Positions 6,206-48,830 of a DNA stretch of 48,830 nt are shown here, piece by piece. The notes beneath the pieces are model-generated. The model was not told the DNA's origin. It worked only from the letters and a program-made list of their open reading frames with translations, and ran no database searches. The first letter of the stretch is position 1. Each line of letters opens with the position of its first letter. Made by a program: the position numbers and the translations under genes. Where the stretch lies: positions 1 to 48,830 of the IMG/VR virus record IMGVR_UViG_3300034069_000920. One strand, written 5' to 3'. This DNA is from a virus.

Positions 6206-6214
6206 GAGAGCCTC

Positions 6215-24640: not shown

Positions 24641-25248
24641 TGGCTGCCCGCTACCGCGCAGCCGACTATCTCTCGGCATTGCGATCCCTACTGCCGCGTG
24701 GGCGGGTCTGGCCAGCAGATGCCGACAGCATGCAAGCCCAGGTCCTTGCGTGCATGGCACCTACTTTGGAGAGGGTCGACGCCGCCGCGATCGCGCTCAT
24801 CGCCGATACTTTCCCTGCATCGACGACAAACTTCATCGATGAATGGGACGCGGCACTTGGCCTGCCGGATCCCTGCCTCGGCGAGAACCCGACACTTGAG
24901 CAGAAGCGCGCGCAGATCGTTGCTCGGCTCATCGCGCCAGGCGGGCAATCGGCGCAGTTCTATATCGATTATGCCGCGGCCCTCGGTTTCGAAATCGCCA
25001 TCACCGCTTTCGCGCCATTCCGCGCGGGTCGGAGCCGAGCCGGTGATACTCTTGGCGGCGACGCGGCTCCCTTCACATGGTTGGTGACGATCCTGTCGGA
25101 CGCGAGCAGCGCGAAGAATGCCGCCTTTCGCGCCGGACAAGGTCATGCCGGTGACCCGCTTTCCTCGGCCGCAGCATCGCATTCCACCCTGCTTTGCGAG
25201 CTGAACCGCATTGCACCGGCGCACACCGTCCTGCTCTTCACTTACTGA
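24640..25248 (+). CDS. Tail protein, DUF2313 (Mu gp48-like)
   Basis: Contains YLSALRSLLPRGRVWPADADS...FIDEWDAALGLPDPC. Confidence 0.8.
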   Translation: MAARYRAADYLSALRSLLPRGRVWPADADSMQAQVLACMAPTLERVDAAAIALIADTFPASTTNFIDEWDAALGLPDPCLGENPTLEQKRAQIVARLIAPGGQSAQFYIDYAAALGFEIAITAFAPFRAGRSRAGDTLGGDAAPFTWLVTILSDASSAKNAAFRAGQGHAGDPLSSAAASHSTLLCELNRIAPAHTVLLFTY

Positions 25249-25261
25249 TCCGGAGAACTTC

Positions 25262-25825
25262 ATGCAGCGCATCGACGTCGGAACGGCTGTTGCCGTTCTG
25301 CCAACCCCGGCTGCCGCCGGAACGCCTGGGTTTTTCACGGAGGGCGATCCGGTTGGCGGCATCGCACCGACGATCGTGAGCGGCGACTGGCTGAACATGG
25401 TTCAGGAAGAGCTAATCGGCGTGGTCGTGAAGAGCGGACTCACGCCTTCTAAGACGAACCGCACTCAGTTGCTCACCTCAATAATCGCACTGATCGTTGG
25501 CGCCGACGGCAGCAACATTGGGTCGGAAGGTTCGATATCGTTGGCTGGCGGTCTGCTGGTCGCGAAATGGGGAACGGTCACGATCGCTCCTTCGCAAAGT
25601 GCCACTACGTCAGTTGCGCACCCATACCCTGTACCATTCCCGGCGGAGAGCTTCGGTGTACTCGGCACGCCGAAAGCCGCCACAGCAGCGGGCGGATGGA
25701 ACCCGATCACCTCGTTCGTGCCCCTTTCCGACAAAAATGGTTTCACGGTGGTGATCGATAGCACTGATCCTGGCCATTTCGTGCTCCAACCGGTGCCTTA
25801 TTTTTACATCGCGCTCGGCAGGTAA
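25262..25825 (+). CDS. Tail fibre protein (short; gp53-like C-terminal domain)
   Basis: Start at MQRIDVG. The N-terminal motif GTPGFFTEGDPVGGIAPTIVSGDWLNMVQEEL is common to phage tail fibres. The C-terminus reads ...PVPFPAESFGVLG...KNGFTVVI. Confidence 0.7.
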   Translation: MQRIDVGTAVAVLPTPAAAGTPGFFTEGDPVGGIAPTIVSGDWLNMVQEELIGVVVKSGLTPSKTNRTQLLTSIIALIVGADGSNIGSEGSISLAGGLLVAKWGTVTIAPSQSATTSVAHPYPVPFPAESFGVLGTPKAATAAGGWNPITSFVPLSDKNGFTVVIDSTDPGHFVLQPVPYFYIALGR

Positions 25826-25883
25826 CCACCAGCCGCCTTCCTAGCAGCAGCCTGCCCCACGCCGGCTTTCGAGTGAGCGCGCC

Positions 25884-27596
25884 ATGCCCAAGATTACTGA
25901 CTATCCTTTGGCTGACGTTCTCAAGGGGACAGAGGCTTTTCTTGCGGACCAGAATGGGACTGTTTCGGTCAATATCGCTGCACTCGCAGCGTACCTACTG
26001 AATCAATTCGGCGATCCGGCGAGCAACAACGCTCTTGCGGCGCTGACGCAGATTGTTGAGCAGAATGCCTCGAGCAACGTCATAGATTGCGGTCCATGGG
26101 ATCCTGATGCGCCGGTATTCGCGGATGCTCGATGGGGGGCAACGGCGTCGCGGCGCGTTTTGCCAAACGCAAACCGCGCTGACTTTGCTCCCGCGATGGT
26201 CCGCCCCGGAGAGGTTGTCGTCGACGAACGCGGCATCCCGTGGTTTGGCGATGCGAGCGGACGCCCCGGGGGCGTTTCGCACCGGGCGACCGACGACGGC
26301 AATACCTTCGACCGCGCCATGTTCGACCGGCTGCGAGATCAAGCCGTCAGCATCATGGATGCGTATCTGCCGACCGATCCAGACTTCACGGCGGCGGCGC
26401 GCCGCGTGCTGGCGACGGGCAAAAACCTATTCCTCCCGAGCCGCGTCGGCGGCTATCCGATTTCCGACGGGCTGGTCATGTCGTCGGACGGACAGCAGAT
26501 CATCAGCGATGGTGCGTATCACGGGTATTTCCGTGTCACGTCGAACTTCAACCTGAGCGCACCCGGCGTCATCACGATCCTGACGTCGGCCAATGAGCAT
26601 CAGTCCGGCCTCACCAATGTCGGCATCCTGTTCGAACAGCCGAACACCCCGACCAGCATGTCGCAGATCATCAAGTACCCGTGGGCGATCAACGCGCCTG
26701 GCGTAGCGCGTATGTCGTTCAACGGAGTGATCCGGATTGAGGATGCATGGAACGGCCTCAACTTCATCGGCAATGTGGGCGGCCTCGTCGCCGATGACTT
26801 CGAAATCTCCGCCTACAACCGCGCCTATATTTTCGACGGGGCGCTAGATTCGGTCCACATCACCACGCTGAAACTGTGGCCGTTCATCGCGTCGAACACG
26901 TCGCAGGCTTTCGCGCTCTACGCGCAGGCCCTTGGCGGCTACATCGGTCATGTCGATGGTCTCGACATCAAGACGATCGCACATTTCGCGCAACCGCTGG
27001 TCGTAGATACCACGACGAATGGTGGCGGCATTGGCACGATCGGCGCGTTGCAGATGGACGGTGCCGGCTCGAAGCTGACGTGGAACAACCACGGCTATCG
27101 GGTTGGAAACCTCTACACAACGGCCTCGACTGCCACGATTTCGACGATGGAAATCAACGGCGGCTTCCTGTCGGTGGCCGGGCTCTACCTTCAGGGTGCC
27201 TCGGACGTTGCTGGCGCCAGTGCGGCCCCGCTCATCCTCCTCAAAGGCGGCCAGTTCCAGGTTACCAAGCCGTTCATGTCCGGCATCGGGCCGGGACAGA
27301 CGGTGATCCAGCAGTCGGGCGGCATCCTCGATTGGGAAGGCGGCATCTTCAACACCGATCCAAACGCCTCCTACACGGTGCCGCTGATCCACATCACCGG
27401 CGGATTCGCGACGATCAGCAAGCCGCGCTTCCTGCCGACCAACGCCAGCGGAAACGTCGCGATCAAGGTCGAGACGGACAACTACCACGACATCGAGATC
27501 AACGTGCTGTCGGGCTGGGCACGCTCTGTTCCCGCGTCGCCGACGACCAGCACGTTCCGCTTCGGTTCAACACTTATCGGAGGGCCATCGCTTTGA
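25884..27596 (+). CDS. Tailspike-like protein 1 (beta-helix type; depolymerase candidate)
   Basis: 570 aa with an adaptor-like N-terminus (MPKITDYPLADVLKGTEAFLADQNGTVSV). Its central region is paralogous to 27593..29317 and 29943..31673. Confidence 0.6.
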   Translation: MPKITDYPLADVLKGTEAFLADQNGTVSVNIAALAAYLLNQFGDPASNNALAALTQIVEQNASSNVIDCGPWDPDAPVFADARWGATASRRVLPNANRADFAPAMVRPGEVVVDERGIPWFGDASGRPGGVSHRATDDGNTFDRAMFDRLRDQAVSIMDAYLPTDPDFTAAARRVLATGKNLFLPSRVGGYPISDGLVMSSDGQQIISDGAYHGYFRVTSNFNLSAPGVITILTSANEHQSGLTNVGILFEQPNTPTSMSQIIKYPWAINAPGVARMSFNGVIRIEDAWNGLNFIGNVGGLVADDFEISAYNRAYIFDGALDSVHITTLKLWPFIASNTSQAFALYAQALGGYIGHVDGLDIKTIAHFAQPLVVDTTTNGGGIGTIGALQMDGAGSKLTWNNHGYRVGNLYTTASTATISTMEINGGFLSVAGLYLQGASDVAGASAAPLILLKGGQFQVTKPFMSGIGPGQTVIQQSGGILDWEGGIFNTDPNASYTVPLIHITGGFATISKPRFLPTNASGNVAIKVETDNYHDIEINVLSGWARSVPASPTTSTFRFGSTLIGGPSL

Positions 27597-29317
27597 GCTC
27601 TGCCCAGCCCACCCGGCTTTTCGTTCCTCCCGCTCCGGCGGCGCTGATCGCCTCGCGTAAGCCTCAGCCGCGCGAGTTCGTCTTTGATGCAACCAATGAG
27701 GCAATGACCTTCGGCACGACGAAAGGCGCGGTCTGGCTGTCCACCCTGCCGTCAATCAAGAATTACCCAATCGTCCCGCACGATCCCAGCAACCTTGCAG
27801 ACATGGGGCCGGTCATCCAGGCGGCGCTCGATGATGGCGTGCGCGATTTCTCCGACGTCAATCTCTACATCGATTCCGCTGTCACGATCCCAAACAACGC
27901 CATTGTCACATGGTCGCCGCAAGGCGAGATCATTCCGAAGACGGAAGGTTTCATCAATCGACATGGCATCTGGGCGATCGGACCAAACGCCGCAGTCAAT
28001 TGGGGTCGCGACACGACGCTGATTTGCCCGAGCGTCATTCACAAAGATTTCATGATCCCGCCCGCCATTACCGGCGACGCGACAAAGGATGTGCCTGCAG
28101 CAGCGGCGCGGCTGGCCGCGCGTGTCGCGAATGGCACTGGGATGTTGCTCAACCGTCCGGATGTGCTGCTCGTCAACCCGTTCGTCGTCGGCTTCAACAC
28201 TGCGTACGTGATGAACGCCGAGCGCATTCGGCTTTCTTACCCTCGTGCGGACTGCATCAACGGCATTGAAGGATTCGGGATCGGCGACTGCTGTTATGTC
28301 GACCGCCTGCATTTCTGGCCATACTGGTTCTCCCATATCGACTCGATCCCGCCCGCTGGTGTGCTCGGTAGTTACCAAAAGGGGCTGTACTTCCACGACA
28401 AGGCGGACGGTGTTCAGATCGACGGTGGCCTGATCTATGGCATGGCAATCAGCGAGCATTACCGCGACGTGTACGGCCTGAAAGCCAAGGGCGTCTGGCT
28501 GGATGGAGATCCTACCATCGCTGCGGATCGCGGCACCATCGGCGTGCTGACCGAGGGCAACTGCCAGTTCCTCGACCTGTCGCATACGCACACCAACAGC
28601 CATGCCATCAGCCGCAAGTTCTACCACACCGGCGGCACGGTCATCTGGAGCGACAACACCTCGTCTGATGCTCAGGTCGCTGACACGCTGCTTGGCACTG
28701 GCCATTCTACGGGCAGTATCAGCGTCGAAAACGCAAAGGGTTCGGCGCTCATCACCCTGTCGGACGCACCTGGCATCCACGACGTCTATATCCGCAATGA
28801 AGGCGGTGCGCCGGTCACCGCTGGGGTCGTCGTCAATGCGAGCGCGGTCACGACTAAGACGCAGCTCAATCGCGTCAAGTTGCAGTATACCGATATCGGC
28901 TCCGGTTACGCCGACAATACCAGCATCCTGTCGTCCTACGTGTTGGCCGTGTCGAACGCGGATCAACAGGTGGCGGCGAACACCGCCACGCATCCAAACT
29001 TCGTGACGACAACCGACACGCTGGGAGAGTGGAACGGCACGACGTTCACGGCAGCGGAAGCCGGCGATTACTACTTCGATGTGGACCTCGCCTTCACGGC
29101 ATCGGCCAACACATCGGTGCTGCTGCAAGTGATGCGCTCTGGAACAGAATACCGCCGCGTACAGCAACAGGTTCTAGCGGGCGCCGGATCCGTCGCGCTT
29201 GGGCGAATCGTCCGAATGAGCGCCGGAGCTACGCTCACTGTGTTGCTGACAATGGGCGCATCGGGGTCGCTGACCAACGGCGTCTGCAAACTCAAGGTCG
29301 CCCGGCGCGGCGCTTGA
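27593..29317 (+). CDS. Tailspike-like protein 2 (beta-helix type, C1q/TNF-like C-terminal domain candidate)
   Basis: The TTG start at 27593 overlaps the upstream TGA and has a GGAGGG RBS 8 nt upstream; the first ATG is near 27704. Shared motifs include LHFWPYWFS. The C-terminus reads WNGTTFTAAEAGDYYFDVDL...LLQVMRSG...SAGATLTVLL. Confidence 0.55.
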   Translation: MSSAQPTRLFVPPAPAALIASRKPQPREFVFDATNEAMTFGTTKGAVWLSTLPSIKNYPIVPHDPSNLADMGPVIQAALDDGVRDFSDVNLYIDSAVTIPNNAIVTWSPQGEIIPKTEGFINRHGIWAIGPNAAVNWGRDTTLICPSVIHKDFMIPPAITGDATKDVPAAAARLAARVANGTGMLLNRPDVLLVNPFVVGFNTAYVMNAERIRLSYPRADCINGIEGFGIGDCCYVDRLHFWPYWFSHIDSIPPAGVLGSYQKGLYFHDKADGVQIDGGLIYGMAISEHYRDVYGLKAKGVWLDGDPTIAADRGTIGVLTEGNCQFLDLSHTHTNSHAISRKFYHTGGTVIWSDNTSSDAQVADTLLGTGHSTGSISVENAKGSALITLSDAPGIHDVYIRNEGGAPVTAGVVVNASAVTTKTQLNRVKLQYTDIGSGYADNTSILSSYVLAVSNADQQVAANTATHPNFVTTTDTLGEWNGTTFTAAEAGDYYFDVDLAFTASANTSVLLQVMRSGTEYRRVQQQVLAGAGSVALGRIVRMSAGATLTVLLTMGASGSLTNGVCKLKVARRGA

Positions 29318-29382
29318 ATCCGTGCCGCCATAGCCGAGCGGCGCTCCGTCACCCTTTGTAGATAACATCATCGCGAGGTATC

Positions 29383-29946
29383 ATGTCGCCTTTGATCCTG
29401 AGGGCATGCGCCCTTGCAATCTCCCTAATTTCCACGCCACTAGCAGCTCAGGTGGCGCCATCGATCCTGCCACCCTGCCGCAATAACAGCGGGTCGTACG
29501 TACCGTGCGGCGGCGCAGTTCTGGTCGACAAGACTGGTGTCGCGCTTGATGCCAATAATCCCCTACCGACCACGCCCGGCCCGCTCGCGGCGGCATCTTC
29601 GATTCCGCTGATCGGCACAGTCACCAGCACGGCCGTCACGCCCGCCTCAGGCGCGGCGACCTTCGCCGGGGGTACCGCGACGATCGGGCCGCTCACGCCA
29701 ACGCTCGGCCGCGATATTGCGCTGAAACTCTGGACATCGAACAGCGCGCCATTCTCCTGCCAGATGTTCGACAGCATCGACGGCGGCGTGACCAAGCTGC
29801 CGCTGTCGATCTTCGATACGCCGATCGGCGGCCCATACAACGGGCCCGTCAACAGCGTCATCACCTCCGAGAGTGTGAGCGGCACGACCGAGTACCTGGT
29901 GTGCACCGTATCCTCCGGCAATCTCAACTATTGGATGGGCCAATGA
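29383..29946 (+). CDS. Secreted protein with Cys-loop N-terminal module (paralogous N-terminus to 34072..34953)
   Basis: 187 aa with a GAGG RBS and the signal peptide MSPLILRACALAISLISTPLAAQ. This is followed by SILPPCRNNSGSYVPCGGAVLVDKTGVALDANNPLP. Confidence 0.6.
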   Translation: MSPLILRACALAISLISTPLAAQVAPSILPPCRNNSGSYVPCGGAVLVDKTGVALDANNPLPTTPGPLAAASSIPLIGTVTSTAVTPASGAATFAGGTATIGPLTPTLGRDIALKLWTSNSAPFSCQMFDSIDGGVTKLPLSIFDTPIGGPYNGPVNSVITSESVSGTTEYLVCTVSSGNLNYWMGQ

Positions 29947-31673
29947 TGCGCTTTCTTCTGGCGGTCCTGATGCTGCTGTTCGCCGCACCGGCGGCAGCGC
30001 AGACAGACCAGGCTGCACGTGGTCTGGCCTTGCAGGCATCGGCCAAAATCACCAATCTCAACACCGTCAACGTCGTCGACTATCGCCGTTTCTTTGATAG
30101 CGACTGGACTCCAGCATTCACGCGCGCACTCGCGACCGGCAAGAACGTCATCATGCCCGAGCTGGTCGGCGGCTATACGATCACAGACAAAATTACCATT
30201 GTCGGCGCAGGTCAGCGGATCATCGGCGCTGGACCGTACAAGAGCTATTTCCACGTCACCACTGCGTTCAATATGAGCGCGACCTCAGTCGTCTCGATCA
30301 ACACAGCGCGGGATAGTGCTGCTGGGCTCGAAAACGTCGGCATCGCATTTGACCAGCCTGTGTTCACTGCCCGCAGCAATGCGATCCAATACCCCTGGGC
30401 TATTGCCTTCACCGGCCAGTCGCGCGTCTATTTCGGTGGCATCGTTCGTATTACCGGCGCATGGAACGGCATCAACGCGGCTGGCGACAGTGGCGGCATT
30501 AGCGCAGACGAGTTGCAGATCGGTGCCCTCAACACCGGCATGGCGATCGATGGTGCCGCCGACTTCATTACAATCCGGCATTTGGGGTGCTGGCCGTATG
30601 GCTTTTCTGACGGCAACCGCCTCCAAGCATGGGGCGATGGCAGCACTACCTGCTTCACCGGCGGGCGCATCGACGGTCTCTCGATCCATTCCCTGACGAC
30701 GTTTCAGGGGCGCGTGGCCTTTGCCGCCGGTACCGATAGCAATGTCACCTTCGGCTCGATCGATAGCCTCTCACTTGATGGCAATTGGGCACGCCTTGAC
30801 GCCAGCGCAGGCTATGTCGCTATCGGCACCTGGTACAAGTCCAGCTCGGCCGCGGGCGATTACGCCATGAACCTAACGGGCGGCCAATGGCGGCTAGGCC
30901 AGTATCGCGCCTTCTATGGCACGGCTCAGACCCAGCCGGGCGTCCTCGTCGCAGGCGCGGCGGTGACGATCGCCTCCGGATTCACCGACAGTGGTTCGAC
31001 ATCCGCGCCGGCGTTCCGCATCACCAGCGGCAATCTCACGCTTGACCAGCCGGTCTTCAACTACGGCACAAACACCGCCCGCACCGCGCCATTCGTCGAC
31101 GTGGCAGGCGGCACGATCACCCTGCTCAATCCGCGCTTTCAGGCGATGGGCAGCGGCTCTGGCAATGGGATCGTGGTTGCCGCGAACAACGTCAACAGCA
31201 TCACCGCGAACCAGATGAACGGCTGGGGAGTTGCCCTGCCGACCGCGATCTCGAACGGCAGCTATGCTTTCGATACGGTGTTCACCGCGACCCCATCTGT
31301 CAGCTTCAGCACGCCAGGGGACAGCGCGTTCACCTATACGACAGCGCTGACGCAATATCGGATCCAGGGGAAGCTGATCTTCTTCCGAACCGCCCTCGCC
31401 TTTAACACCAACGCGTTCACAACGGCTGCGACCGGTTCTTTCCAAATCAGCACCGGCATCCCCTTTGCACCCACCTTCCCAGCCGCGCCGACGCTGCCGG
31501 ACATCAGCAACATCACGTTTTCGGGTTACCTGGCGCCCTACCTGCCCACCAGCAATCTCGCCGTGATCCGGAACACAGCGTCGGGCGCGGCGGAGGGCAA
31601 TTTGGGTACCGCCAACATCAAGGCATCATCCACCGGCGTGGTGACCAACCTCAACGGCACCTATGCCTTCTAA
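29943..31673 (+). CDS. Secreted beta-helix protein, signal-peptide-bearing paralogue of the tailspikes
   Basis: Start at MMRFLL with an ATGA overlap upstream. The signal peptide is MMRFLLAVLMLLFAAPAAAQ. LATGKNVIMPELVGGYTITD...YPWAIAF...GAWNGINAAGDSGG...LGCWPYGF aligns by eye with 25884..27596. Confidence 0.6.
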   Translation: MMRFLLAVLMLLFAAPAAAQTDQAARGLALQASAKITNLNTVNVVDYRRFFDSDWTPAFTRALATGKNVIMPELVGGYTITDKITIVGAGQRIIGAGPYKSYFHVTTAFNMSATSVVSINTARDSAAGLENVGIAFDQPVFTARSNAIQYPWAIAFTGQSRVYFGGIVRITGAWNGINAAGDSGGISADELQIGALNTGMAIDGAADFITIRHLGCWPYGFSDGNRLQAWGDGSTTCFTGGRIDGLSIHSLTTFQGRVAFAAGTDSNVTFGSIDSLSLDGNWARLDASAGYVAIGTWYKSSSAAGDYAMNLTGGQWRLGQYRAFYGTAQTQPGVLVAGAAVTIASGFTDSGSTSAPAFRITSGNLTLDQPVFNYGTNTARTAPFVDVAGGTITLLNPRFQAMGSGSGNGIVVAANNVNSITANQMNGWGVALPTAISNGSYAFDTVFTATPSVSFSTPGDSAFTYTTALTQYRIQGKLIFFRTALAFNTNAFTTAATGSFQISTGIPFAPTFPAAPTLPDISNITFSGYLAPYLPTSNLAVIRNTASGAAEGNLGTANIKASSTGVVTNLNGTYAF

Positions 31674-31733
31674 CTCTGCTCTTCGCGCACCCATGGGGCT
31701 GCGATCAGCCCCGGAAGGCAAAGGAGCTCGCCC

Positions 31734-32168
31734 ATGATTCTCCTCCGCCTCCGGCGCACCTTCCGCGAGCGTGCGCCGGAATGGGCGCTCGCGTTCATCC
31801 AGACCGGTTGGGGCGGTACGCTGCTCCTGCCTGGCGGATCGTTCGACCGACCGTTCTTCAAGCCGTTGGCGGTGATCGCGACCGCAGAGACATGGGGCTG
31901 GACAATGCTGCTGACCGGGCTCTCCCGCTTCACCGCGCTCTACATTAACGGCTCGATGCGCCAGACGCCGCACGCGCGCCAGGCGTGCAGCCTGATCGGA
32001 ATGGCCTTGTGGGCGCTGCTCACCTTCAGCGCGCTGTCGCTGGAATGGCGGACGCCTGCGGTCTTCAACTACGGTGGCCTCTTCATCCTCGAGGCGATCA
32101 TGTTTTCCTATGCCGGCCGGGATGCCGCGCGCACTGTCGCAAAGGGCGCGGCCAATGGAGTTCAGTAG
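31734..32168 (+). CDS. Polytopic membrane protein (holin/antiholin or exclusion candidate)
   Basis: 144 aa with an AAGGAG RBS and about 4 hydrophobic segments. It is the first gene of the lysis block. Confidence 0.55.
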   Translation: MILLRLRRTFRERAPEWALAFIQTGWGGTLLLPGGSFDRPFFKPLAVIATAETWGWTMLLTGLSRFTALYINGSMRQTPHARQACSLIGMALWALLTFSALSLEWRTPAVFNYGGLFILEAIMFSYAGRDAARTVAKGAANGVQ

Positions 32169-32475
32169 CCTACCCGTTTGGGCGCAGCAGGTCGGCGCAC
32201 TTCTTGTCACTCTCGGCACCGCGATCTCGCTGTATTGGGCCGAGCATCGCAAGCGGAAGGACGAGCCCAAGGTGACCTCTGGCGGCAGCGACCGCGAGGT
32301 GATCGCCGCAAGCTTCGTCGGCACGCGGCAGATGGATGATGCGATCGCCGTCCTGCGCCAGATCCACACCGCAGTCACGGAGATGAACGGTCATCTCGAG
32401 AAGGCAAACGAACGCGCTCACGAGGCCGACATGATCGCCGCGATCGCCGCGAAGATGCGGGAAGAGCGCCACTAA
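32155..32475 (+). CDS. Single-TM membrane protein (holin-like)
   Basis: Internal ATG (MEFSSLPVWAQQVGALLVTLGTAISLYW), followed by a charged coiled tail. It lies immediately upstream of the endolysin gene. Confidence 0.5.
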   Translation: MEFSSLPVWAQQVGALLVTLGTAISLYWAEHRKRKDEPKVTSGGSDREVIAASFVGTRQMDDAIAVLRQIHTAVTEMNGHLEKANERAHEADMIAAIAAKMREERH

Positions 32476-32497
32476 GGCCGCAACGAAAGGTACATAG

Positions 32498-33124
32498 ATG
32501 AAGCCGTTCACCGCGGACCTGCTCGCGCAGGTCTTCGCGCCGACCCCGCGCGCCACCTGCTCCCTGTACGCTGCACCGCTTGAGGCAGCATGCCAGCGCT
32601 ACGGGATCAACACCGTCGCGCGCCGGTCCGCGCTGCTCGGGCAGATGGGGATCGAGTGCTCCCGCCTCACCCGCATGTCGGAAAACATGAACTATCGCGA
32701 CCCACAGCGGCTCGACGATATGTTCTCGGCCGTGCGTGGCTTCGCCGATGCAAGCGCGCTCATCAAGGCCGGGCCGCAGGCGATCGCCAACCGGGTTTAC
32801 GCGTATCGTCTTGGCAACGGTGACGAGGCGAGCGGCGACGGCTGGCGGCATCGCGGCGCGGGCGGGATCGGTTGCACCGGCAAGACCAATCAAGCCGCAT
32901 TCGGCGCCGCGATCGGCATGCCCCTCGCCAAGGTGCCGGCCTACCTGCTCACCCCTGAGGGCGCGATGCTGGTCACGGGCTGGTTCTGGGACACGCATCA
33001 CCTCAACCCGCTGGCGGATGCCGGCGACATCGACGCGATCACCCGCGTGGTCAACGGCCCGGCGATGACGGCTGCCGATGAGCGACGCGCACTGACCATC
33101 AAAGCAGGAAAGGCATACGCATGA
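32498..33124 (+). CDS. Endolysin, glycoside hydrolase family 19
   Basis: GQMGIECSRLTRMSENMNY (two catalytic-type Glu), IANRVYAYRLGNGDEASGDGWRHRGAG, TGWFWD and ITRVVNGP fit GH19 phage endolysins. Confidence 0.85.
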   Translation: MKPFTADLLAQVFAPTPRATCSLYAAPLEAACQRYGINTVARRSALLGQMGIECSRLTRMSENMNYRDPQRLDDMFSAVRGFADASALIKAGPQAIANRVYAYRLGNGDEASGDGWRHRGAGGIGCTGKTNQAAFGAAIGMPLAKVPAYLLTPEGAMLVTGWFWDTHHLNPLADAGDIDAITRVVNGPAMTAADERRALTIKAGKAYA

Positions 33125-33507
33125 CCTTCTGGACCTTTCTCGACCGGACCCTGAACCGCCTGCCCGGCTGGCCGAGCGAGCGCCAATGGGTGACGATCTG
33201 GCTGGGCGCGCTGATCGTGATCCTGTTGCTCATGGCGCGCGCGAATCCTGACTTGTGGAACGTCGAGGTGTTCAAGGTGATCGCGCAGGCGGTCGTGCTG
33301 ACCGGCTTCCTCAACATGGTGCTGGCGTTCCACTTCGCGGCCAACAAGGGCGACGAGGACAAGACGGCCAACACGGGGAAGGCGTTCGAGGCGATCACCG
33401 CAGCCGCCAATGCCGCGGCACCGGGCGAGGTCGCAAGCAAGGCGGCTGACCAAGTGGCCGATGCTGCGGCCGACAAAGCCAGCCAGATCAAGGGCGATGC
33501 GGCATGA
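33121..33507 (+). CDS. Two-TM membrane protein (holin candidate)
   Basis: 128 aa with an ATGA overlap with the endolysin. It has two hydrophobic helices and an Ala/Asp/Lys-rich tail. Confidence 0.55.
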   Translation: MTFWTFLDRTLNRLPGWPSERQWVTIWLGALIVILLLMARANPDLWNVEVFKVIAQAVVLTGFLNMVLAFHFAANKGDEDKTANTGKAFEAITAAANAAAPGEVASKAADQVADAAADKASQIKGDAA

Positions 33508-33863
33508 GCCTCATCCCCACCCCCGTCGCCGCCTTCGTCGAGGCGTACAAGCCGATCCTGATCGGCATAGGCATCGCCCTGCTCATCGCCGTGCTGCTCG
33601 CTCTCGCCTACTGCTCGGGCGGCGCCGGCGTGCAGCACGCGGACGATCAGGAGACGATCCAGCTACAGACCCACGTCATCGCCGCCGACGGCAACGCCGC
33701 AGACGCGCGCGTTGCGGACACGACCCATATCCAGAACCAGCAGCGGGAGATCGAAGATGCTGTCCAGAACACCTCGAGCATTGATGATGCTCGCCGCGCT
33801 CGCGGGTGCGTCATCCTGCGCCAGCAAGGTCGTGGTGCAGCCGCTACTGCCGCCGGTTGCTGA
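33504..33863 (+). CDS. i-spanin (Rz-like)
   Basis: 119 aa with an N-terminal TM (ILIGIGIALLIAVLLALAY) and a periplasmic coiled region. The o-spanin start is embedded in its 3' third. Confidence 0.6.
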   Translation: MSLIPTPVAAFVEAYKPILIGIGIALLIAVLLALAYCSGGAGVQHADDQETIQLQTHVIAADGNAADARVADTTHIQNQQREIEDAVQNTSSIDDARRARGCVILRQQGRGAAATAAGC

Positions 33864-34056
33864 CCTCCGTCAGATCGCCGAGCCGGCGTATCCGATCGAG
33901 GCGCTGCAACCCGGTGATGCCGGCGCGAAAGCCGAGGCGGCATGGCACGACAAGGTACTGACCTGGGGTCGTACGGGCTGGGCGCAGAACCGACGCGTGT
34001 GTCAGTGGGCCATCGACATGAAGCTCGCGGTGCCGGCCGGGTACTGCAACCCGTAG
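33757..34056 (+). CDS. o-spanin (Rz1-like lipoprotein), overlapping the i-spanin in another frame
   Basis: ATG 33757 has a GGGAGA RBS. The lipoprotein-type signal MLSRTPRALMMLAALAGASSC is followed by a Pro-rich mature part. The gene overlaps 33504..33863 by 107 nt. Confidence 0.6.
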   Translation: MLSRTPRALMMLAALAGASSCASKVVVQPLLPPVADLRQIAEPAYPIEALQPGDAGAKAEAAWHDKVLTWGRTGWAQNRRVCQWAIDMKLAVPAGYCNP

Positions 34057-34071
34057 TTCGAGAGGCCAACC

Positions 34072-34953
34072 ATGAAGAACCTGCTCCGCATCGCAGGCGC
34101 GGCCACACTCGCCCTGCTCGCCTCCCCAGCCTCGCCGCAGAGCTTCATTCCGAACTGCCGCAACGCCGGCGGCTCATATATTCCGTGCGATCCGGTGGTG
34201 CTGGTCGATAAGACCGGCACGATCATCGACAGCACGAACCCGTTGCCCGTCTCCGGGGGAGGTGGCGGCGCTACCACGATCGCCAACGGCGCTGACACCG
34301 CACAGGGCAGCACAGGAGATGCAGCCTACAGCGACGCGGCAGGAATTGCCTCGGGCACAGTGATCGCTCTCCTGAAAGGAATGTACGCCAGCCAGCGCGT
34401 TATGGGAATGTCGGCAGTGGGCGCAGCGCCCAGCGGTTATCCGATGTTCGTTGCCGGGACGGATGGAGGCGTCATCCGCGCGCTGCGACTGGACGGTAAC
34501 GGTCGCCTGCAGGGGACCTGGTATACATCCGGCGGGCAGGAGATCAGCTACCGCAACGATAACACGAACAACGTGGCACCGACGAGTGCCAACACGATGC
34601 CGGCATTCATTTCTCGACAGACGGTCTTTGACGGCAGCCGATGGCAGTTCGCAGCCGGCGACATCTACGGCGCCTGGTCTCACGCGCCTCAGTCGACACC
34701 CGCCCCGAGCGGCGGCACAATTGCGGCTAGCGGTGGCACCGCAGCCCTTGTTTTCACCAACATCACAGACGGCGAGGTGATGAACCCTTCGACAGCCGTG
34801 CTGTGGGCGTCATGGGGTACACCGGCGGTCAACGGTGCTGGCAGCTTCGCCATCCAGCCCAACGGATCGTATCGGCCGCCCAGCCGTGTCGCGGGGACCC
34901 TGACTCTGCTCTCGACCGCTACCAACCAGACTTACACCTTCAACAAGTTCTGA
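34072..34953 (+). CDS. Secreted protein with Cys-loop N-terminal module (paralogous N-terminus to 29383..29946)
   Basis: 293 aa with the signal peptide MKNLLRIAGAATLALLASPASPQ. This is followed by SFIPNCRNAGGSYIPCDPVVLVDKTGTIIDSTNPLP, a G5 linker and a beta-rich C-terminal domain. Confidence 0.6.
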   Translation: MKNLLRIAGAATLALLASPASPQSFIPNCRNAGGSYIPCDPVVLVDKTGTIIDSTNPLPVSGGGGGATTIANGADTAQGSTGDAAYSDAAGIASGTVIALLKGMYASQRVMGMSAVGAAPSGYPMFVAGTDGGVIRALRLDGNGRLQGTWYTSGGQEISYRNDNTNNVAPTSANTMPAFISRQTVFDGSRWQFAAGDIYGAWSHAPQSTPAPSGGTIAASGGTAALVFTNITDGEVMNPSTAVLWASWGTPAVNGAGSFAIQPNGSYRPPSRVAGTLTLLSTATNQTYTFNKF

Positions 34954-34967
34954 TCGGGAGAACCTGC

Positions 34968-35528
34968 ATGAAAATGGCGCTTCTGGCGATCGGCTTGGTA
35001 ATCGCCTCCCCTTGTGCCGCGCAGCTCATCAATCCCGGCGCGAACCCGGCAGATGTCGCGCAGGCGCAGGCGCTGGCGCAGGCCGCCCAAGCCGCAGCGG
35101 CGACGGCAGCAGCCAATGCCTGCGCACCAGCATCCAGCGTACCACCGATCGAGCAGCCGGTCGGCACAGCGGGATCAGCCCAGACCTGTCGCCGATCGGA
35201 CGCCGTTCAGACCCGCATCACCCGCGTCACGATGACGACCTCGGTCGCCGGCGGGCTCGTCTCAGGATCGTGGTCAACACCCCTGCCTGCCGCGCCCGCG
35301 GTGATCTTCGAGGCAGTCAACGCGACAGCTGCTCAGCCAATCTTCTGCAACCTGACTGCCACGCCGACGACCACTACCTTCGCCGGCAAGTGCTGGATCC
35401 AGAACCCGCCGGTGGTGACGCTGTCGGGACTTACCAACGCGGGCACCACTGGTCTGACGCTGCCTGTCACGACGACGGTCCCGGTCGGCACGCAGGTCTT
35501 CGCCTTCGCGATTCCGACCACGCAGTAG
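34968..35528 (+). CDS. Secreted Ala/Thr-rich protein
   Basis: Internal ATG (MKMALLAIGLVIASPCAAQ) of ORF 34803..35528. It is the last gene before the late terminator. Confidence 0.55.
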   Translation: MKMALLAIGLVIASPCAAQLINPGANPADVAQAQALAQAAQAAAATAAANACAPASSVPPIEQPVGTAGSAQTCRRSDAVQTRITRVTMTTSVAGGLVSGSWSTPLPAAPAVIFEAVNATAAQPIFCNLTATPTTTTFAGKCWIQNPPVVTLSGLTNAGTTGLTLPVTTTVPVGTQVFAFAIPTTQ

Positions 35529-35558
35529 CGGGTCCGCTGGCCTTCCTTCTCCCCACCT

Positions 35559-35592
35559 AGAGCGCTCGAGCTTCGGCTCGGGCGCTCTTTTT
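35559..35592 (+). terminator. Rho-independent terminator ending the long rightward (late) transcription unit
   Basis: AGAGCGCTCGAGC (35559-71), TTCG loop and GCTCGGGCGCTCT (35576-88) form a 13-bp stem with one G-T wobble, followed by TTTT. Confidence 0.8.
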
Positions 35593-35649
35593 GCGTCCGG
35601 CAACCGAATCGCTTTCCTACAGTTCCGCTTTCGTTCCACAGCGACCCGC

Positions 35650-35934
35650 ATGGACGACATAGACCAACCGCTCGCCAATCTCATCGGCCACAACGTCATG
35701 ATCTCCACGCGCTGCGGCTGCACAAAGGTGGTGGACATGTCACCTGAGCGGCTGATCAGGAAGCTTGGCAAGGGCGCTACGTTGCGGATCGCCGCATCGC
35801 GCTTACGCTGCCGGACCTGTCGGCAGCGTCCTACCGTCTCGCTGGATCGGACGTGGGAGACCAGCGGGAGCCGAGATAGGCGTCAAGATCCGGTGCCGCT
35901 GCCGGAGTGGGCTCGGCAGATGCTGGGCCGGTGA
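35650..35934 (+). CDS. Small Cys-motif protein (zinc-ribbon-like), stand-alone gene after the late terminator
   Basis: 94 aa with high GC3. It has paired Cys motifs RCGC and RCRTCRQRP. No clear SD is present. Confidence 0.55.
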   Translation: MDDIDQPLANLIGHNVMISTRCGCTKVVDMSPERLIRKLGKGATLRIAASRLRCRTCRQRPTVSLDRTWETSGSRDRRQDPVPLPEWARQMLGR

Positions 35935-35979
35935 TTCCCTCCCCACAGACGGCGTGTTCGTGGTCGTTGGGCATGGTCA

Positions 35980-36453
35980 TTATTCCTTGGCTGGGGCGGC
36001 GAGCATGGGCAACATCGGGGGCATGGAACCGATCCGATATGCCTCTGCGATCTGCGGCCGCATCCACTCGCTGACGGTTCGTTTATCGGGCAAGACGATG
36101 TTCGCCATGAACTCGTCTTCGAACACACTAATGCCGCTCTCGACGGCTTCCAACTTCGCCTTGATGACGAGAGCCAGTGCACGCCAGCGCTGCCGCGATG
36201 CCTGCTCCCATTCCTTCTTAGCCGCCTCGGGAGCGCGGATGCCCCGGCTGTGATGGGTGAACTTCCGATCGTTGCGATCAGGCAGCGGAAGGATGAAACG
36301 GATGTGCCGGCCATCCATGCGGAAACCGATCACGGCAGCATCGTCCTGCCAGCCGTAGAGGAACTGGTCGGCGCCATACCGCTCCAGTGTCCGTTCTATC
36401 TCGTCGCGTGACTTTGAGGTGCTGACCTCCGTGCTGGCTGCGTACCGGGTCAT
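35980..36453 (-). CDS. Conserved hypothetical phage protein
   Basis: 157 aa and the last gene of the minus-strand array. Contains the conserved-looking RQRWRALALVIKAKLEAVESGISVFEDEFMANIVLP. Confidence 0.6.
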   Translation of the reverse strand: MTRYAASTEVSTSKSRDEIERTLERYGADQFLYGWQDDAAVIGFRMDGRHIRFILPLPDRNDRKFTHHSRGIRAPEAAKKEWEQASRQRWRALALVIKAKLEAVESGISVFEDEFMANIVLPDKRTVSEWMRPQIAEAYRIGSMPPMLPMLAAPAKE

Positions 36454-37181
36454 GCCCCCTCCCCCGCATCGGTTGCCGGGGCGGCGGGGAGTGGTTCGTC
36501 ATCCATCGCCGTCAGTTCGGCCAACGCTTTGCGGCGAGGCGTGTCAAACAGCTCTTCCCGCGCCCCATGCTGGCGGGCGAGGGCTTCAAGAGCGGACAGC
36601 ATCCGAGCGCTGGCGTCCACCATGCCGTTCGAGTGCGCTTTGTCCTGCTTCCCGACTTCCGAAGCATCACGAACGATTTTGGAAACGGCTTCCCGCAACG
36701 CCTCCACCACCCCCGGTGCGGCCTCTGCCTGCGCGGGCTCGTCGCGCTTCAACAGCATCTGTAGCCGCAGCGCCATTTCGAGCAGCGTGCCGATGTGCCA
36801 GCGCCACACCAGCGCGGTTTGGTCTGGCACATGCGGTTGCTGTTTTACGTAGGCTTCACGCACCGCCAGCCGCGACGCCTCGTAGCGATCGGTCGGCCTT
36901 TCCGTCTTGAGCGGATCAGGGCCAATGTCAGGCCATTCGTGCGGCGCGGCCTCTACCTGCTTGAGCGCGGTTACGATGGCGGGGCGGGTGTTCCAGGCTC
37001 GGATAGCCCAAGCTTCGCTCGCGATATCCCAGCTAGGCGTCTGATTGGCGGGGCATTTCTTGCACTGGACTCCAACGGTATTGCGGCCAGCATCAAGGGA
37101 TATTTCAGCCTCCCCGCCACAGAACGGACAGGGTGCCAGCGCCTCAATCTGCGCCGTGATCGTGGGGGTGGGATCAGTCAT
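36450..37181 (-). CDS. Lar-family (restriction alleviation) zinc-ribbon domain fused to a C-terminal domain of about 175 aa with unknown function
   Basis: The N-terminus LAPCPFCGGEAEISLDAGRNTVGVQCKKCPANQ...AIRAWNTRPA matches the Lar-family pattern CPFCGG...C..C...AWN.R. Total length is 243 aa. Confidence 0.65.
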   Translation of the reverse strand: MTDPTPTITAQIEALAPCPFCGGEAEISLDAGRNTVGVQCKKCPANQTPSWDIASEAWAIRAWNTRPAIVTALKQVEAAPHEWPDIGPDPLKTERPTDRYEASRLAVREAYVKQQPHVPDQTALVWRWHIGTLLEMALRLQMLLKRDEPAQAEAAPGVVEALREAVSKIVRDASEVGKQDKAHSNGMVDASARMLSALEALARQHGAREELFDTPRRKALAELTAMDDEPLPAAPATDAGEGA

Positions 37182-40495: not shown

Positions 40496-40878
40496 GCCGC
40501 CTGATCCGGCTGAGGATAGCCCTGATCGGCCAGCCATTGCGGCACGTGAGCGGCGGGCGCGAATCCTTTTGAAACATCCGCGAGCGGGCGGATAAGGCGC
40601 AAGGGGTCCACCTTCCCCTCAATCACGGCGGCCATCGCGACCATGCAATATTTGTCGCATTCGACTGCCCCGAACGAGACGGCAAGCGCCCGCCTACTCT
40701 TCGCTATGTCGTAATGCGGCCAAGAAACCTTCCGCATCGTGGCCGGGTTCTGAAACCACTTCCGAGCGACTCCGATGCGATCGGCCATCGCGTGCAACTC
40801 GTCGAGGTTCGGCGAAAACATGTGGCACATGATCATGCGGCCATATCCGTGCGTAGCGTTGTCGACATACACGCTCAT
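40492..40878 (-). CDS. DUF4031 family protein
   Basis: MSVYVDNATHGYGRMIMCHMFSPNLDELHAMADRIGVARKWFQ...HYDIAKSRRALAVSFGAVE matches the DUF4031 pattern. Confidence 0.75.
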   Translation of the reverse strand: MSVYVDNATHGYGRMIMCHMFSPNLDELHAMADRIGVARKWFQNPATMRKVSWPHYDIAKSRRALAVSFGAVECDKYCMVAMAAVIEGKVDPLRLIRPLADVSKGFAPAAHVPQWLADQGYPQPDQAA

Positions 40879-42167
40879 TTTTCGCCCCTCGCCTCATCCA
40901 GCGCGCCAATCTGCGCGATATGCTTCCGCCTGGTGGCGGCGATCCGGCGCGCCTTCTCGGCGTTCGCCTTGTTGTAGATCCGGGTTACGGCGAGCGTCTT
41001 GTGACCGGATACCGGCCGCACGTCGTCTTCGCCCGAATCGCCGATCTCAGTGATGCCGCCATGCCGGAAGCCGGTGAACGTCATGTCCTTGGGCAGCCCG
41101 GCGGCTTCGCAGATCTTTCGGTGGACGCTCGACATGCGCCGCTCGGCGTAGCGCTGGCCGTTGCGCTCCTCGACCACGATCGGGCCGGTGACCGCCTTGG
41201 CGGCGGCGAGGGACCGAGCAAGTTCCTCCTCGAGCTCCGGGTACAGCGGCACGCGCTCGACCCCGCCCTCCTCGCCCGGCACCTCCTCGAACAACGGCAG
41301 CGTCACCGGGTTGCCGGTCTTCGACTGCACGAGCGTGATCTCGGCGCCGGGCTGGTAGCCCTCCCACACGATCGAGGCCCGATCTGGCTCGTCCGGATCG
41401 ACGTAGCCGAACGCATCCGACACGCGTTGACATCCCTCGAAGCACAGCGCGGCGGCGGTCGCCATCGACTGGAAGCCCAGCTCGACCGCCTTCGCCCGGT
41501 ACAGGTTGTACTCGGCGCGCGTCGTCGCGCGGTTGCCCTTGGCCGCGGTGCTCTTGAGCCCCATGCCCATGAAGGGGTTCTCCTTCACGCCGGTGACGCG
41601 GTGGTGCCGCGCCGCCCATGACCAGACCAGCCGGCAGACCTGCATGGCGTAGCTCGCCTGGCGTGGGCCGGTGTCGGCGACGAGCTTCTCGTACAGGCGA
41701 TCGGCGGCGGCGGCGTCGACGTCCCCAGCCTTGCGCTTCCCGAACGGCGGTGCCCCCTTCTTCGTCTCGCGCGCGGCGAGCATATCCATCAGCTTGCCAT
41801 AGTCGGCGCGGGTCTTCGCCTTCTTCGACGTGAACCGCGTCTGCTTGCGATACCATTGGAACAGCCACTCGACCGAGCCGGGGACCATCGACGCGCCCTC
41901 TGCGCCCGCTCGCCAGTCCGCGAGCGCCTTGTTGAGCACGTCCGCCTTGCGGCGCATCTCCGCGATGTCGCTGCCGAGCTTCTCCGACGTCAGCAGCATC
42001 GCCTTGCCGTGGCGCATGGCCGGGGTCATCTCACCGGTCTTCTCGTCCTTCACCGGTCGCGCCCAGGCGGGCAGCTCCCAGTAATAGACGGGATCGCCGG
42101 CGGCGTTCTTCACCTTGCGCACGTATGCGGGCAGGCGATCGAAGGCAGGGAGGCGCTTGCCGAGCAT
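40875..42167 (-). CDS. int: Tyrosine integrase
   Basis: Start at MLGKRLP, overlapping the xis-like stop by 1 nt. The catalytic-region motifs are TFTGFRHGGITEIG and SGHKTLAVTRIYNK. The 47-codon upstream extension of ORF 40875..42308 is rejected. Confidence 0.85.
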   Translation of the reverse strand: MLGKRLPAFDRLPAYVRKVKNAAGDPVYYWELPAWARPVKDEKTGEMTPAMRHGKAMLLTSEKLGSDIAEMRRKADVLNKALADWRAGAEGASMVPGSVEWLFQWYRKQTRFTSKKAKTRADYGKLMDMLAARETKKGAPPFGKRKAGDVDAAAADRLYEKLVADTGPRQASYAMQVCRLVWSWAARHHRVTGVKENPFMGMGLKSTAAKGNRATTRAEYNLYRAKAVELGFQSMATAAALCFEGCQRVSDAFGYVDPDEPDRASIVWEGYQPGAEITLVQSKTGNPVTLPLFEEVPGEEGGVERVPLYPELEEELARSLAAAKAVTGPIVVEERNGQRYAERRMSSVHRKICEAAGLPKDMTFTGFRHGGITEIGDSGEDDVRPVSGHKTLAVTRIYNKANAEKARRIAATRRKHIAQIGALDEARGEK

Positions 42168-42406
42168 CAGTCGAACCACTGGCCGGTATCGGTGGCGGCG
42201 CTGCTCTCGAACATCGCGGCCATGGCGGCGTCGAGATCCACGCGCCGCGCGATCGCCGCGCCGTTCCGCCCACGAGGAACGAATCGCACCGCGCCGCGGT
42301 CGCGCCACTCTTTCATCTGCGCCGCGCTCACGCGCGTATAGTCGAGCGCCTCCGCCTCGGTGAGGGCGGCCGGCCAGTCTGGCAGGCTTGCGAGCGCGGT
42401 CATCAC
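42167..42406 (-). CDS. Excisionase/AlpA-like HTH protein
   Basis: 79 aa, directly upstream of int. LTEAEALDYTRVSAAQMKEWRDRGAVRFVP is an MerR/AlpA-type HTH pattern. Confidence 0.55.
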   Translation of the reverse strand: MMTALASLPDWPAALTEAEALDYTRVSAAQMKEWRDRGAVRFVPRGRNGAAIARRVDLDAAMAAMFESSAATDTGQWFD

Positions 42407-42585
42407 CCCTGCCCTTCCGCGAACCCGGCGCGGATCATCCCCGACACCGCGCGCATAGCGACGGCGATCTCCGGCTGATCGGATGCCTTCAGCTTGTCAG
42501 CATGATCGTCGAGGTAGCGGGCGAGGCTCTCGTCCTGCTCCCGGCGAACCTGGGCGAACGTGCGGCGGCGGCAGGTGCGCTTCAT
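42403..42585 (-). CDS. Hypothetical protein
   Basis: 60 aa with 4-nt overlaps on both sides. Confidence 0.4.
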   Translation of the reverse strand: MKRTCRRRTFAQVRREQDESLARYLDDHADKLKASDQPEIAVAMRAVSGMIRAGFAEGQG

Positions 42586-48675: not shown

Positions 48676-48830
48676 CGGTATCAATTCTTATCGGCGATGT
48701 ATTCGACCGCCTTCGCGATGTTGCTGACGAGTCTGTGGACTGCTGCGTCACCTCGCCGCCCTACTGGAACCTGCGCGACTACGACGTTGAAGGTCAGATC
48801 GGTATGGAGCCGACGCTCGCGAAGCATCTC
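48672..48830 (+). CDS. DNA methyltransferase 5' end (continues at base 142 of the unit, i.e. the same gene as 1..1200)
   Basis: The ATG at 48672 gives MTVSILIGDVFDRLRDVADESVDCCVTSPPYW... From 48690 the sequence is the exact repeat of bases 1-141 and is in frame. Confidence 0.8.
   Translation, partial: MTVSILIGDVFDRLRDVADESVDCCVTSPPYWNLRDYDVEGQIGMEPTLAKHL
48690..48830. repeat. End overlap, copy 2 (identical to 1-141)
   Basis: Same 141 bases as the window start. Confidence 0.95.

Follow-up and report, generated by a model that had tools for sequence, protein, structure and literature searches.

Paired, predicted exported relatives of spike and fibre proteins around the lysis block of a putative Sphingomonas phage

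Introduction

Phage receptor-binding proteins and depolymerases are viewed as parts of the particle or as cytoplasmic surplus freed by lysis. Tailspikes are typically either glycanases or esterases, and the known free depolymerases, akin to PF12708 tailspike paralogues, are cytoplasmic products released when the cell lyses. Phage proteins directed at the envelope by other means include (i) the lambda morons bor and lom, exported envelope proteins encoded in the distal late region next to Rz/Rz1, with a promoter and terminator of their own and often a deviant composition; (ii) mycobacteriophage LysB, an esterase of cutinase-like fold encoded in or next to the lysis cassette and active on an outer envelope layer; and (iii) Llp of T5 and Cor, small early lipoproteins that plug a protein receptor (FhuA). 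Llp is exported and encoded beside the gene of the receptor-binding protein, and is thought mainly to protect progeny from receptor-bearing debris, Llp and Cor being thought also to protect the infected cell from superinfection (bioRxiv 10.64898/2026.03.26.714494). The present analysis concerns a window of 48,830 nucleotides (nt), the whole stretch of DNA analysed (IMG/VR virus record IMGVR_UViG_3300034069_000920, positions 1 to 48,830), in which two gene pairs, A1/A2 and B1/B2, encode four proteins with predicted Sec signal peptides on either side of a holin-endolysin-spanin block.

An earlier note on this DNA had placed four signal-peptide genes in two pairs bracketing the lysis block, and the open reading frames (ORFs) bear this out, all of them on the + strand; they are given here with the spike gene to which A2 is related (lengths in amino acids, aa):

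A1, 29383..29946, + strand: 187 aa; signal peptide, hairpin module and all-beta C-terminal domain
A2, 29943..31673, + strand: 576 aa; signal peptide, conserved mature N-terminus, predicted beta-helix and C-terminal extension
B1, 34072..34953, + strand: 293 aa; signal peptide, module, Gly5 linker, variable middle and C-terminal jellyroll
B2, 34968..35528, + strand: 186 aa; signal peptide, AQLINP motif, Ala/Gln-rich stretch and beta domain with cysteine (Cys) pairs
Virion-type spike, 25884..27596, + strand: 570 aa; cytoplasmic paralogue of A2, located after baseplate wedge and tail-fibre N-terminal genes

Because these genes couple a signal peptide to a gain of Cys, are paralogous to spike and fibre proteins minus the particle-binding part, come in pairs, are embedded in the late operon and adjoin lysis genes, the interpretation favoured here, while stopping short of calling it probable, is that A1, A2, B1 and B2 are late, Sec-exported, oxidatively folded, non-virion copies of host-recognition proteins that would act on surface polysaccharide.

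Comparison with described systems

A2 resembles the free depolymerases and PF12708 tailspike paralogues in its homology to a spike, in its PF12708-matching homologues and in the missing particle-binding N-terminus, but differs from them by a predicted Sec signal, a conserved post-signal peptide, a coupled small partner likewise predicted to be exported, and an extra C-terminal domain of ~120 aa. It also departs from virion tailspikes, which are defined by an N-terminal particle-binding domain and assembly in the cytoplasm. A literature search found no paper on an exported tailspike or depolymerase with a Sec signal, nor on a relevant Sphingomonas prophage depolymerase. The four proteins recall Llp and Cor as predicted exported phage proteins encoded next to receptor-binding genes; however, they carry no lipobox, are fibre- or spike-like, are paired and lie in a late operon, and no sequence relation to Llp/Cor was detected with Pfam or PHROGs.

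B1 belongs to the same family as gp19 of Sphingomonas phage Scott (together with gp18) and as the 'X/Y' pair of P22-like and SU10-like podophage contigs, which have the hairpin ...D..G......NPLPT and in which a B2-type gene follows the B1-type gene as it does in the window; in contrast, Scott gp19 and the X/Y relatives have neither signal peptide nor Cys and are annotated as hypothetical only. With the subunits of Bacillus Ena endospore appendages (DUF3992), which have a Cys-bearing N-terminal connector, B1 may share a small jellyroll behind an N-terminal extension with two Cys, but the B1 jellyroll lacks an acceptor Cys, Pfam DUF3992 does not match it, and the organism and cellular context differ. 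The likeness to lambda morons lies in predicted export and in a distal position within the late region, beside spanin genes, whereas the window pairs have neither the regulatory signals nor the deviant composition of morons and are unrelated to them in sequence. LysB can be likened to the GDSL/SGNH-type partner enzymes of three related loci (L001, L010 and L011), but it is not Sec-exported with a partner, and the enzyme of the window is a predicted beta-helix rather than an esterase. Judged by sequence, the defining features of lipoprotein exclusion factors, morons, virion spikes and Ena pili are absent from the four proteins, apart from a weak fold match of the modelled B1 jellyroll to Ena.

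Signal peptides and predicted export

A strict home-made signal rule was applied in six frames to each ORF with each of its start codons, requiring (i) K/R in the n-region, (ii) an 11-residue hydrophobic core with a mean Kyte-Doolittle value >= 2.0, (iii) no acidic residues, and (iv) a small-x-small-Q motif. Genome-wide, only A1, A2 and B2 passed it; B1, whose signal ends ...ASPASPQ, fails in the c-region alone, and P0012 and P0013 have canonical signals (MKNLLRWAGAIALALPSVALAQ) to which its N-terminus, MKNLLRIAGA..., is homologous. The signals of the four proteins end in LAAQ, AAAQ, ASPQ and CAAQ and are preceded by good ribosome-binding sites, including a GAGG Shine-Dalgarno sequence 5' of the A1 ATG. 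They are kept in P0012, P0013, P0125 and P0126 and in every one of the 10 close relatives of A1. A1, A2, B1 and B2 are accordingly described here as predicted exported proteins of the Sec (signal peptidase I) type, and 'envelope-directed' is a label drawn from these signals. A lipobox, L-[AS]-[GA]-C, occurs at none of the four and is found only in the o-spanin; the sole Cys near a cleavage site, that of B2 (...ASPCAAQ), is preceded by Pro.

The public JGI call of A1 (P0024, 164 aa) begins at a GTG just past the signal (window 29383-29451), and automated annotation therefore hides an export signal that all 10 homologues keep. In P0018, from contig L022, a Met directly follows the signal, and long exported and short cytoplasmic forms might both arise.

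The shared Cys hairpin module

A1 and B1 share a module directly behind the signal, for which a manual count gives 22/38 identical positions, as the earlier note had it, and BLASTP gives 22/36 identical residues (E 8e-13), confined to residues 27-62 of A1 and 24-59 of B1. In A1 the module spans residues 27-64 (DNA 29461-29574), with Cys33 and Cys42, behind a signal of residues 1-23; in B1 it lies at DNA 34141-34254 and likewise holds two Cys, Cys29 and Cys38. The C-terminal parts show no relationship: outside the module BLASTP detects no A1/B1 similarity, and hhalign profile-profile comparison aligns the module region alone, revealing no hidden homology between the two C-terminal domains. At the DNA level the modules are identical at 63/114 positions (55%), and 15 of the 22 identical residues use different codons; the modules thus diverged long ago under selection on the protein, with neither a recent duplication nor an assembly artefact involved. 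A hidden Markov model (HMM) of the module, run on the six-frame translation of the window, matched A1 (E 1e-15) and B1 (E 4e-18) only, the next match having E 0.8; by this search no virion protein of the phage carries the hairpin.

A 43-position profile of the module alone was searched against 1.84 billion representative proteins and matched 94 protein clusters at E <= 1e-3, 18 of them at E <= 1e-10. In about 57 clusters the proteins have 66-506 aa, and the module follows immediately on a signal peptide, at residues ~25-70. Whole-payload single-linkage clustering merged most proteins through mosaic linkers, and the last 85 residues were used instead; in 59 proteins with signal and module these fall into at least 19 sequence clusters, or payload types. 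In the largest payload cluster and the A1-type proteins, the module Cys number two and the C-terminal domain holds two more. The commonest form of the module, SSVQFPAGWAPGQ.PCVKQ.DGTCVPVSA.NPLPVTGG, places its Cys differently from the window form, LPPCRN..GSY.PC..VLVDKTG...D..NPLP; the two are alignable throughout, and each is found on both A1-type and B1-type payloads. Signal-bearing module proteins occur in myo-, sipho- and podophages and phages with a T4-like baseplate of Sphingomonas, as well as in Sphingomonas chromosomes, a range drawn from few named genomes, all of them Sphingomonas; a 7-sequence module profile searched against genome contigs led to a single locus.

The Cys content follows the signal. 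Exactly two module Cys are present in 50/51 signal-bearing proteins, and the hairpins of the scored non-signal proteins have none, except P0110 with one. Cys are not obligatory, however, being absent from the exported relatives on the IMG/VR contigs L011, L012 and L013. The remaining matches have no signal and are either short proteins that start with the hairpin or proteins of 500-1400 aa with 4-14 LVD..G......NPLPV repeats. Since the Cys-free hairpin heads non-exported proteins of structural modules and is repeated in large phage proteins, the module is not specific to export. The earlier proposal of a shared exported module in an undescribed accessory system is therefore retained in part: the module is recurrent, sits on many payloads and matches no entry in Pfam, PHROGs or the PDB sequences, but it is neither confined to exported proteins nor invariably provided with Cys. 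It is best described as a putatively disulfide-stapled derivative of a fibre-type hairpin (LVD..G......NPLPV), in which the two Cys behave like an adaptation to the periplasm, and it may therefore have more to do with fibres or oligomerisation than with an address function.

Pfam and PHROGs yielded no match for the four proteins, the module-bearing proteins or the repeat proteins; the module has no match among PDB sequences, a tblastn search of 50,697 phage records with A1 and B1 as queries returned none, and no description of the module was found in the literature. The tandem-hairpin proteins (P0048, P0053, P0054, P0072, P0074, P0076 and P0086) form an unannotated family in which the 4-14 copies (..D..G......NPLPV) are Cys-free and many members start LQKLI.D...K.FRDGEAKGL.

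Pair 1: a spike paralogue and its small partner

The start codon of A2 overlaps the stop codon of A1 (ATGA). The earlier note had taken one partner for a spike paralogue, and A2 aligns with the 25884-27596 product at 32% identity over 418 residues (E 1e-58). The alignment starts at spike residue 155 and at residue 42 of A2, whose residues 1-20 form the signal peptide, so that the first 154 residues of the spike have no counterpart in A2. By its gene position the 25884-27596 product is probably the virion spike, and its N-terminal 154 residues are presumably the particle-binding part; since A2 lacks them, it would have to act off the particle. The mature protein begins with a conserved N-terminus, QTDQAARGLALQA, and ends in a ~120-aa extension (residues 454-576, DNA 31302-31673) that is also present in P0125-P0128, is missing from the spike and may be an extra binding domain.

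Neither A2 nor the spike matches a Pfam model at E <= 0.1. A2 is nonetheless related to two distant proteins without signals, P0127 (E 6e-61, 34% identity, 81% coverage) and P0128 (E 2e-54), which match PF12708 (pectate-lyase-like beta-helix) at 65 and 59 bits, above a cut-off of 27. Nothing significant emerged when the PDB was searched by sequence and by profile with A2 and the A1, B1 and B2 families. The all-beta C-terminal domain of A1 has two conserved Cys, Cys126 and Cys174. This domain also stands alone in diverse phages, one of them low in GC, as proteins of 108-138 aa without signal (IMG/VR L017-L020, ~6000-6360); in two of these contigs it is encoded just upstream of a very large ORF (647-1078 aa).

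The pairing of each module protein with a second secreted protein, put forward in the earlier note, recurs as conserved gene pairs. In the window, as in L001, L003, L005/6, L010, L011, L012, L025 and L028, the gene of a small module protein directly precedes that of a large exported enzyme, mostly with an overlap of 1-4 nt, and every A1 relative examined is followed by a large signal-bearing protein. The catalytic parts of the A1-type partners are unrelated to one another and comprise (i) the predicted beta-helix of A2; (ii) GDSL/SGNH esterases in L001 (phrog_8480, E 6e-18), L010 (Pfam Lipase_GDSL_2, E 2e-11, 45 bits against a cut-off of 33) and L011 (phrog_6102, E 3e-24); and (iii) a 495-aa protein without assigned type in L003. 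Across these unrelated catalytic parts seven partners have the mature N-terminus Q[TQV]D[QRP]AARG[LIM]A[LA]QA in common, which suggests a peptide for docking to the A1-type partner. P0125 and P0126, the nearest homologues of A2 (57% identity), have signals, lack the Q.D.AARG peptide and follow different small module proteins, directly downstream of spanins (L025 and L028). A candidate fusion of small partner and enzyme, P0133 (700 aa), was rejected, its extension being an out-of-frame over-call.

A1-type pairs also reside at a chromosomal site between a pyridoxal decarboxylase gene and OprB/UvrA, with copies in two or more named strains of Sphingomonas and in two contigs from metagenomes. The set there comprises an A1-type protein, a secreted esterase and a 73-74-aa protein with two transmembrane segments (L001 10001-12514; L005 10001-12498; L006 5543-8040). 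In L005 and L006 the esterase gene is split (446+142 aa); the locus may be a decaying remnant and the small transmembrane protein a former holin.

Pair 2: exported and cytoplasmic forms of a two-gene unit

B1 has 22 relatives with a common C-terminal domain of ~85 aa, and the 23-member alignment of this B1/'X' family (Scott gp19-like) displays a hairpin ...[VL].D..G......NPLP, a variable middle and the ~85-aa domain. From this alignment AlphaFold models residues 206-293 of B1 as a small jellyroll with a predicted local distance difference test (pLDDT) score of about 90. Scott gp19 leads the viral Foldseek matches of the model (E 1.4e-8), alongside numerous phage proteins of ~90 aa that carry no annotation (TM-score 0.6-0.76). 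The best PDB matches are Ena2A and Ena1B (9i0y, E 3.6e-4, TM-score 0.46; 7a02, E 5.6e-3), with generic cupins scoring alike, and at 18-21% identity the modelled likeness to Ena and cupins would hold at the level of the fold only. The two module Cys are the only ones in B1, none lying in the jellyroll, and neither B1 nor B2 shows an enzyme-like domain by Pfam or fold search.

Scott gp19 starts MSVAFIDADGKARTVSASNPLPTTGG, with a Cys-free hairpin, and its gene lies just upstream of the endolysin; three further B1 relatives without signal, P0023, P0009 and P0002, are encoded between the head-tail adaptor and a P22 gp10-like gene in podophage contigs. B2 is 37% identical to L022_172 over 133 aa (E 5.5e-11) and is connected by way of L002_153 with L009_147 (E 3e-5) and L023_137 (E 5e-5), two non-exported proteins encoded immediately after P0009 and P0002, respectively; a pattern search for B2 relatives in IMG/VR found none. 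Exported B1-type and B2-type proteins are paired in L002 and L026, both Sphingomonas prophages, between tail genes and holins, and in L022 inside the structural module. The exported B2-type proteins carry Cys pairs, which the cytoplasmic ones lack. The finding of both exported and cytoplasmic pairs marks B1 and B2 as an old two-gene unit that exists in two forms; for the non-exported relatives gene position points to a structural role. In L022, a P22-like podophage contig, three consecutive signal-peptide ORFs (286, 316 and 172 aa) occupy 8001-10329 in the middle of the structural module.

Genome, lysis block and late operon

Bases 1-141 and 48690-48830 of the window are identical, and this exact repeat of 141 bp at both ends indicates the circular assembly of a complete phage genome of ~48.7 kb. 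All named relatives of the proteins studied come from Sphingomonas, and the source is probably a Sphingomonas-type phage; megablast of 25000-36000 against GenBank phages found no similar phage and only an 84-nt endolysin match. The baseplate wedge genes and the tail-fibre N-terminal gene match PHROG tail families. From the spike onwards the order is spike, fibre-like gene, A1, A2, two membrane ORFs, endolysin, 128-aa ORF, spanins, B1, B2 and terminator, the features other than the spike and the two pairs being:

~27644-29317: second fibre-like gene, between the spike and A1
31734..32168, + strand: holin-like multi-pass membrane protein, 144 aa; phrog_8980 (function unknown), E 5e-6; putative role from position and topology
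32074..32475, + strand: second small membrane ORF, overlapping the first; no family match; candidate holin; the true start is probably the internal Met of MEFSSLPVW
32498..33124, + strand: endolysin, 208 aa, GH19/chitinase-like; phrog_181, E 2.5e-57
33121..33507, + strand: 128-aa protein with two transmembrane segments inside the lysis block; same arrangement behind a GH19 endolysin in L003
33504..33863, + strand: i-spanin, 119 aa; Rz-like phrog_5151, E 0.004 (weak); Pfam DUF7537 below threshold
33757..34056, + strand: o-spanin lipoprotein, out of frame over the i-spanin gene, MLSRTPRALMMLAALAGASSC...; phrog_456, E 0.003 (weak); lipobox by inspection
35559..35588, + strand: intrinsic terminator directly after B2; 13-bp stem with 9 GC pairs, T-run

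The fibre-like product of 27644-29317 matches the C1q-like C-terminal domain of BclA, though weakly and below threshold (E 0.0018). The block between the pairs comprises the elements of a holin-endolysin-spanin cassette, namely an endolysin, flanking membrane proteins, overlapping i- and o-spanins and a lipobox. Since the terminator stands directly 3' of B2, the pairs occupy the distal end of the late operon, where the earlier note had put them. The genes are co-oriented and tightly packed, with gaps of 15-65 nt, and the GC content at third codon positions of the pair genes (0.75-0.78) is like that of their neighbours. Around the pairs, no promoter or terminator of their own was found other than the operon terminator, the promoter search using an E. 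coli-type consensus only. This arrangement suggests that the pairs are expressed late, with the particles. Nine of 10 exported phage loci adjoin a lysis cassette.

Other genes of the window encode an N6/N4 DNA methylase, a beta clamp of DNA polymerase III, a restriction-alleviation protein resembling Lar, a protein resembling PcfJ, and a protein of 477 aa that matches integrase weakly (46-1200; 1875-3098; 36450-37181, - strand; 42582-43601, - strand; 40875-42308, - strand).

Proposed function and alternative explanations

According to the favoured interpretation, the four proteins would be expressed from the late operon alongside the particles. Pair 1 would form a two-part free glycan-active enzyme, consisting of A2 as the enzyme and A1 as a fibre-like adaptor produced by translational coupling; in A2, the particle-binding N-terminus of a spike would have been swapped for a signal peptide and the conserved post-signal sequence. 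Pair 2 would be the exported form of a conserved fibre-like unit, the cytoplasmic form of which is encoded among head-tail genes in podophages, and would serve as a free binding unit. The module would represent a single unit of the fibre hairpin repeat LVD..G......NPLP, with a disulfide staple gained in the exported versions. In the periplasm or envelope, and after lysis in the medium, the proteins would bind, cut or deacetylate receptor or barrier polysaccharide on the infected cell, its debris and neighbouring cells, so that progeny are not trapped and can spread, an action either receptor-destroying or receptor-masking.

Several observations weigh against this proposal. In several Sphingomonas genomes (L001, L005 and L006), A1-type pairs stand at a conserved chromosomal locus outside any phage, for which a cell-autonomous role fits at least as well as a phage role, and the integrase-like gene, although a weak match, leaves room for expression from a prophage. 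A Sec signal leads only as far as the periplasm and no outer-membrane route is evident, so that action at the surface before lysis is uncertain; and because a cytoplasmic depolymerase is also freed at lysis, export needs a rationale of its own, for instance oxidative folding or action in cis. At the level of the single proteins, the assignment of A2 to the pectate-lyase-like beta-helices is transitive, as A2 itself reaches no Pfam model, docking through the Q.D.AARG peptide is not general, as P0125 and P0126 lack it, and the AlphaFold model of A1, built from 11 sequences, has a pLDDT of 39, too low for a fold search.

Expression from the prophage offers a different and rather unlikely account, in which the lysogen makes the proteins and its receptor polysaccharide is trimmed, deacetylated or covered by them, so that related phages no longer adsorb and the host cell benefits (lysogenic conversion or superinfection exclusion). 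In lambda, bor occupies the place next to the lysis cassette in which the pairs are found here, and the weak integrase match makes the phage probably temperate; the A1-type protein with its esterase, moreover, persists in Sphingomonas at a chromosomal site free of phage genes. Prophage proteins that alter the cell surface and block adsorption are common (PMC12952977, PMC10883804). The pairs, however, have no promoter or terminator of their own, do not deviate in composition from the phage, and are co-oriented and tightly packed in the late operon; relatives occur in lytic-looking contigs and, in non-exported form, in the lytic Autographiviridae phage Scott, and the split chromosomal esterase of L005 and L006 suggests decay. 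Less likely again is a role as accessory lysis or release factors, analogous to LysB, which would follow holin, endolysin and spanin and breach the sphingan exopolysaccharide (EPS), the capsule or the glycosphingolipid outer leaflet from inside. Exported pairs do adjoin the lysis cassette in the window, L002, L003, L010-L013, L025, L026 and L028, their partners are often GDSL 'lipase'-type esterases, L003 has an extra GDSL gene between the pair and the holin, and late expression, as predicted, would suit such factors; but a spanin pair is already there to deal with the outer membrane, the alternation of beta-helix and SGNH enzymes together with the spike paralogy points to a polysaccharide receptor rather than a lipid, B1 and B2 have no enzyme-like domain, and the same position is usual for tail-fibre and accessory genes.

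It is improbable that the periplasm serves as a maturation compartment in which the spike-type enzyme and the fibre-like proteins are exported, stapled and assembled, to be attached to virions after lysis through the N-terminal hairpin, the enzyme perhaps docking to the A1 adaptor via Q.D.AARG.A.QA, or to polymerise into disulfide-linked fibres like Bacillus Ena. The hairpin does form the N-terminus of non-exported relatives in structural modules, the signal-peptide ORFs of L022 stand amid a P22-like structural module, Ena2A and Ena1B head the PDB matches of the B1 jellyroll, and the A1-type proteins and the largest payload cluster have Cys in both the module and the C-terminal domain. To our knowledge, though, a post-lysis, extracytoplasmic assembly step has no precedent among tailed phages; the Ena match is weak and accompanied by generic cupin jellyrolls, the B1 jellyroll lacks Cys, the hairpin is absent from the virion proteins of this phage, and chromosomal copies exist without any phage. 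Hardly credible, finally, is a chance similarity or a mis-annotated start, by which the signals would stem from over-extended ORFs and the module from low-complexity coincidence. The JGI start of A1 and the post-signal Met of P0018 would fit it, but the A1/B1 E-value, the 94 module clusters with their 18 strong matches, signals conserved across families behind good ribosome-binding sites, and a Cys content that tracks the signal effectively refute it.

Implications

Against the prevailing view of receptor-binding proteins and depolymerases as particle parts or surplus of lysis, recurrent and modular versions with predicted Sec export are found here. What is undescribed is the architecture, combining a modular hairpin, a putative disulfide staple and adaptor-enzyme pairs, within a known kind of protein, the host-surface-directed accessory proteins of phages. 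The repeated conversion between a cytoplasmic, Cys-free form and a predicted exported, Cys-stapled form provides a clean natural example of compartment switching, and the post-signal peptide that unrelated enzymes have in common suggests docking by a plug-in rule, which could be reused for enzyme display. If receptor stripping or masking does proceed from inside the infected cell, these proteins would be a polysaccharide-directed counterpart of T5 Llp, with a bearing on superinfection, on the loss of progeny to debris and on spread through EPS.

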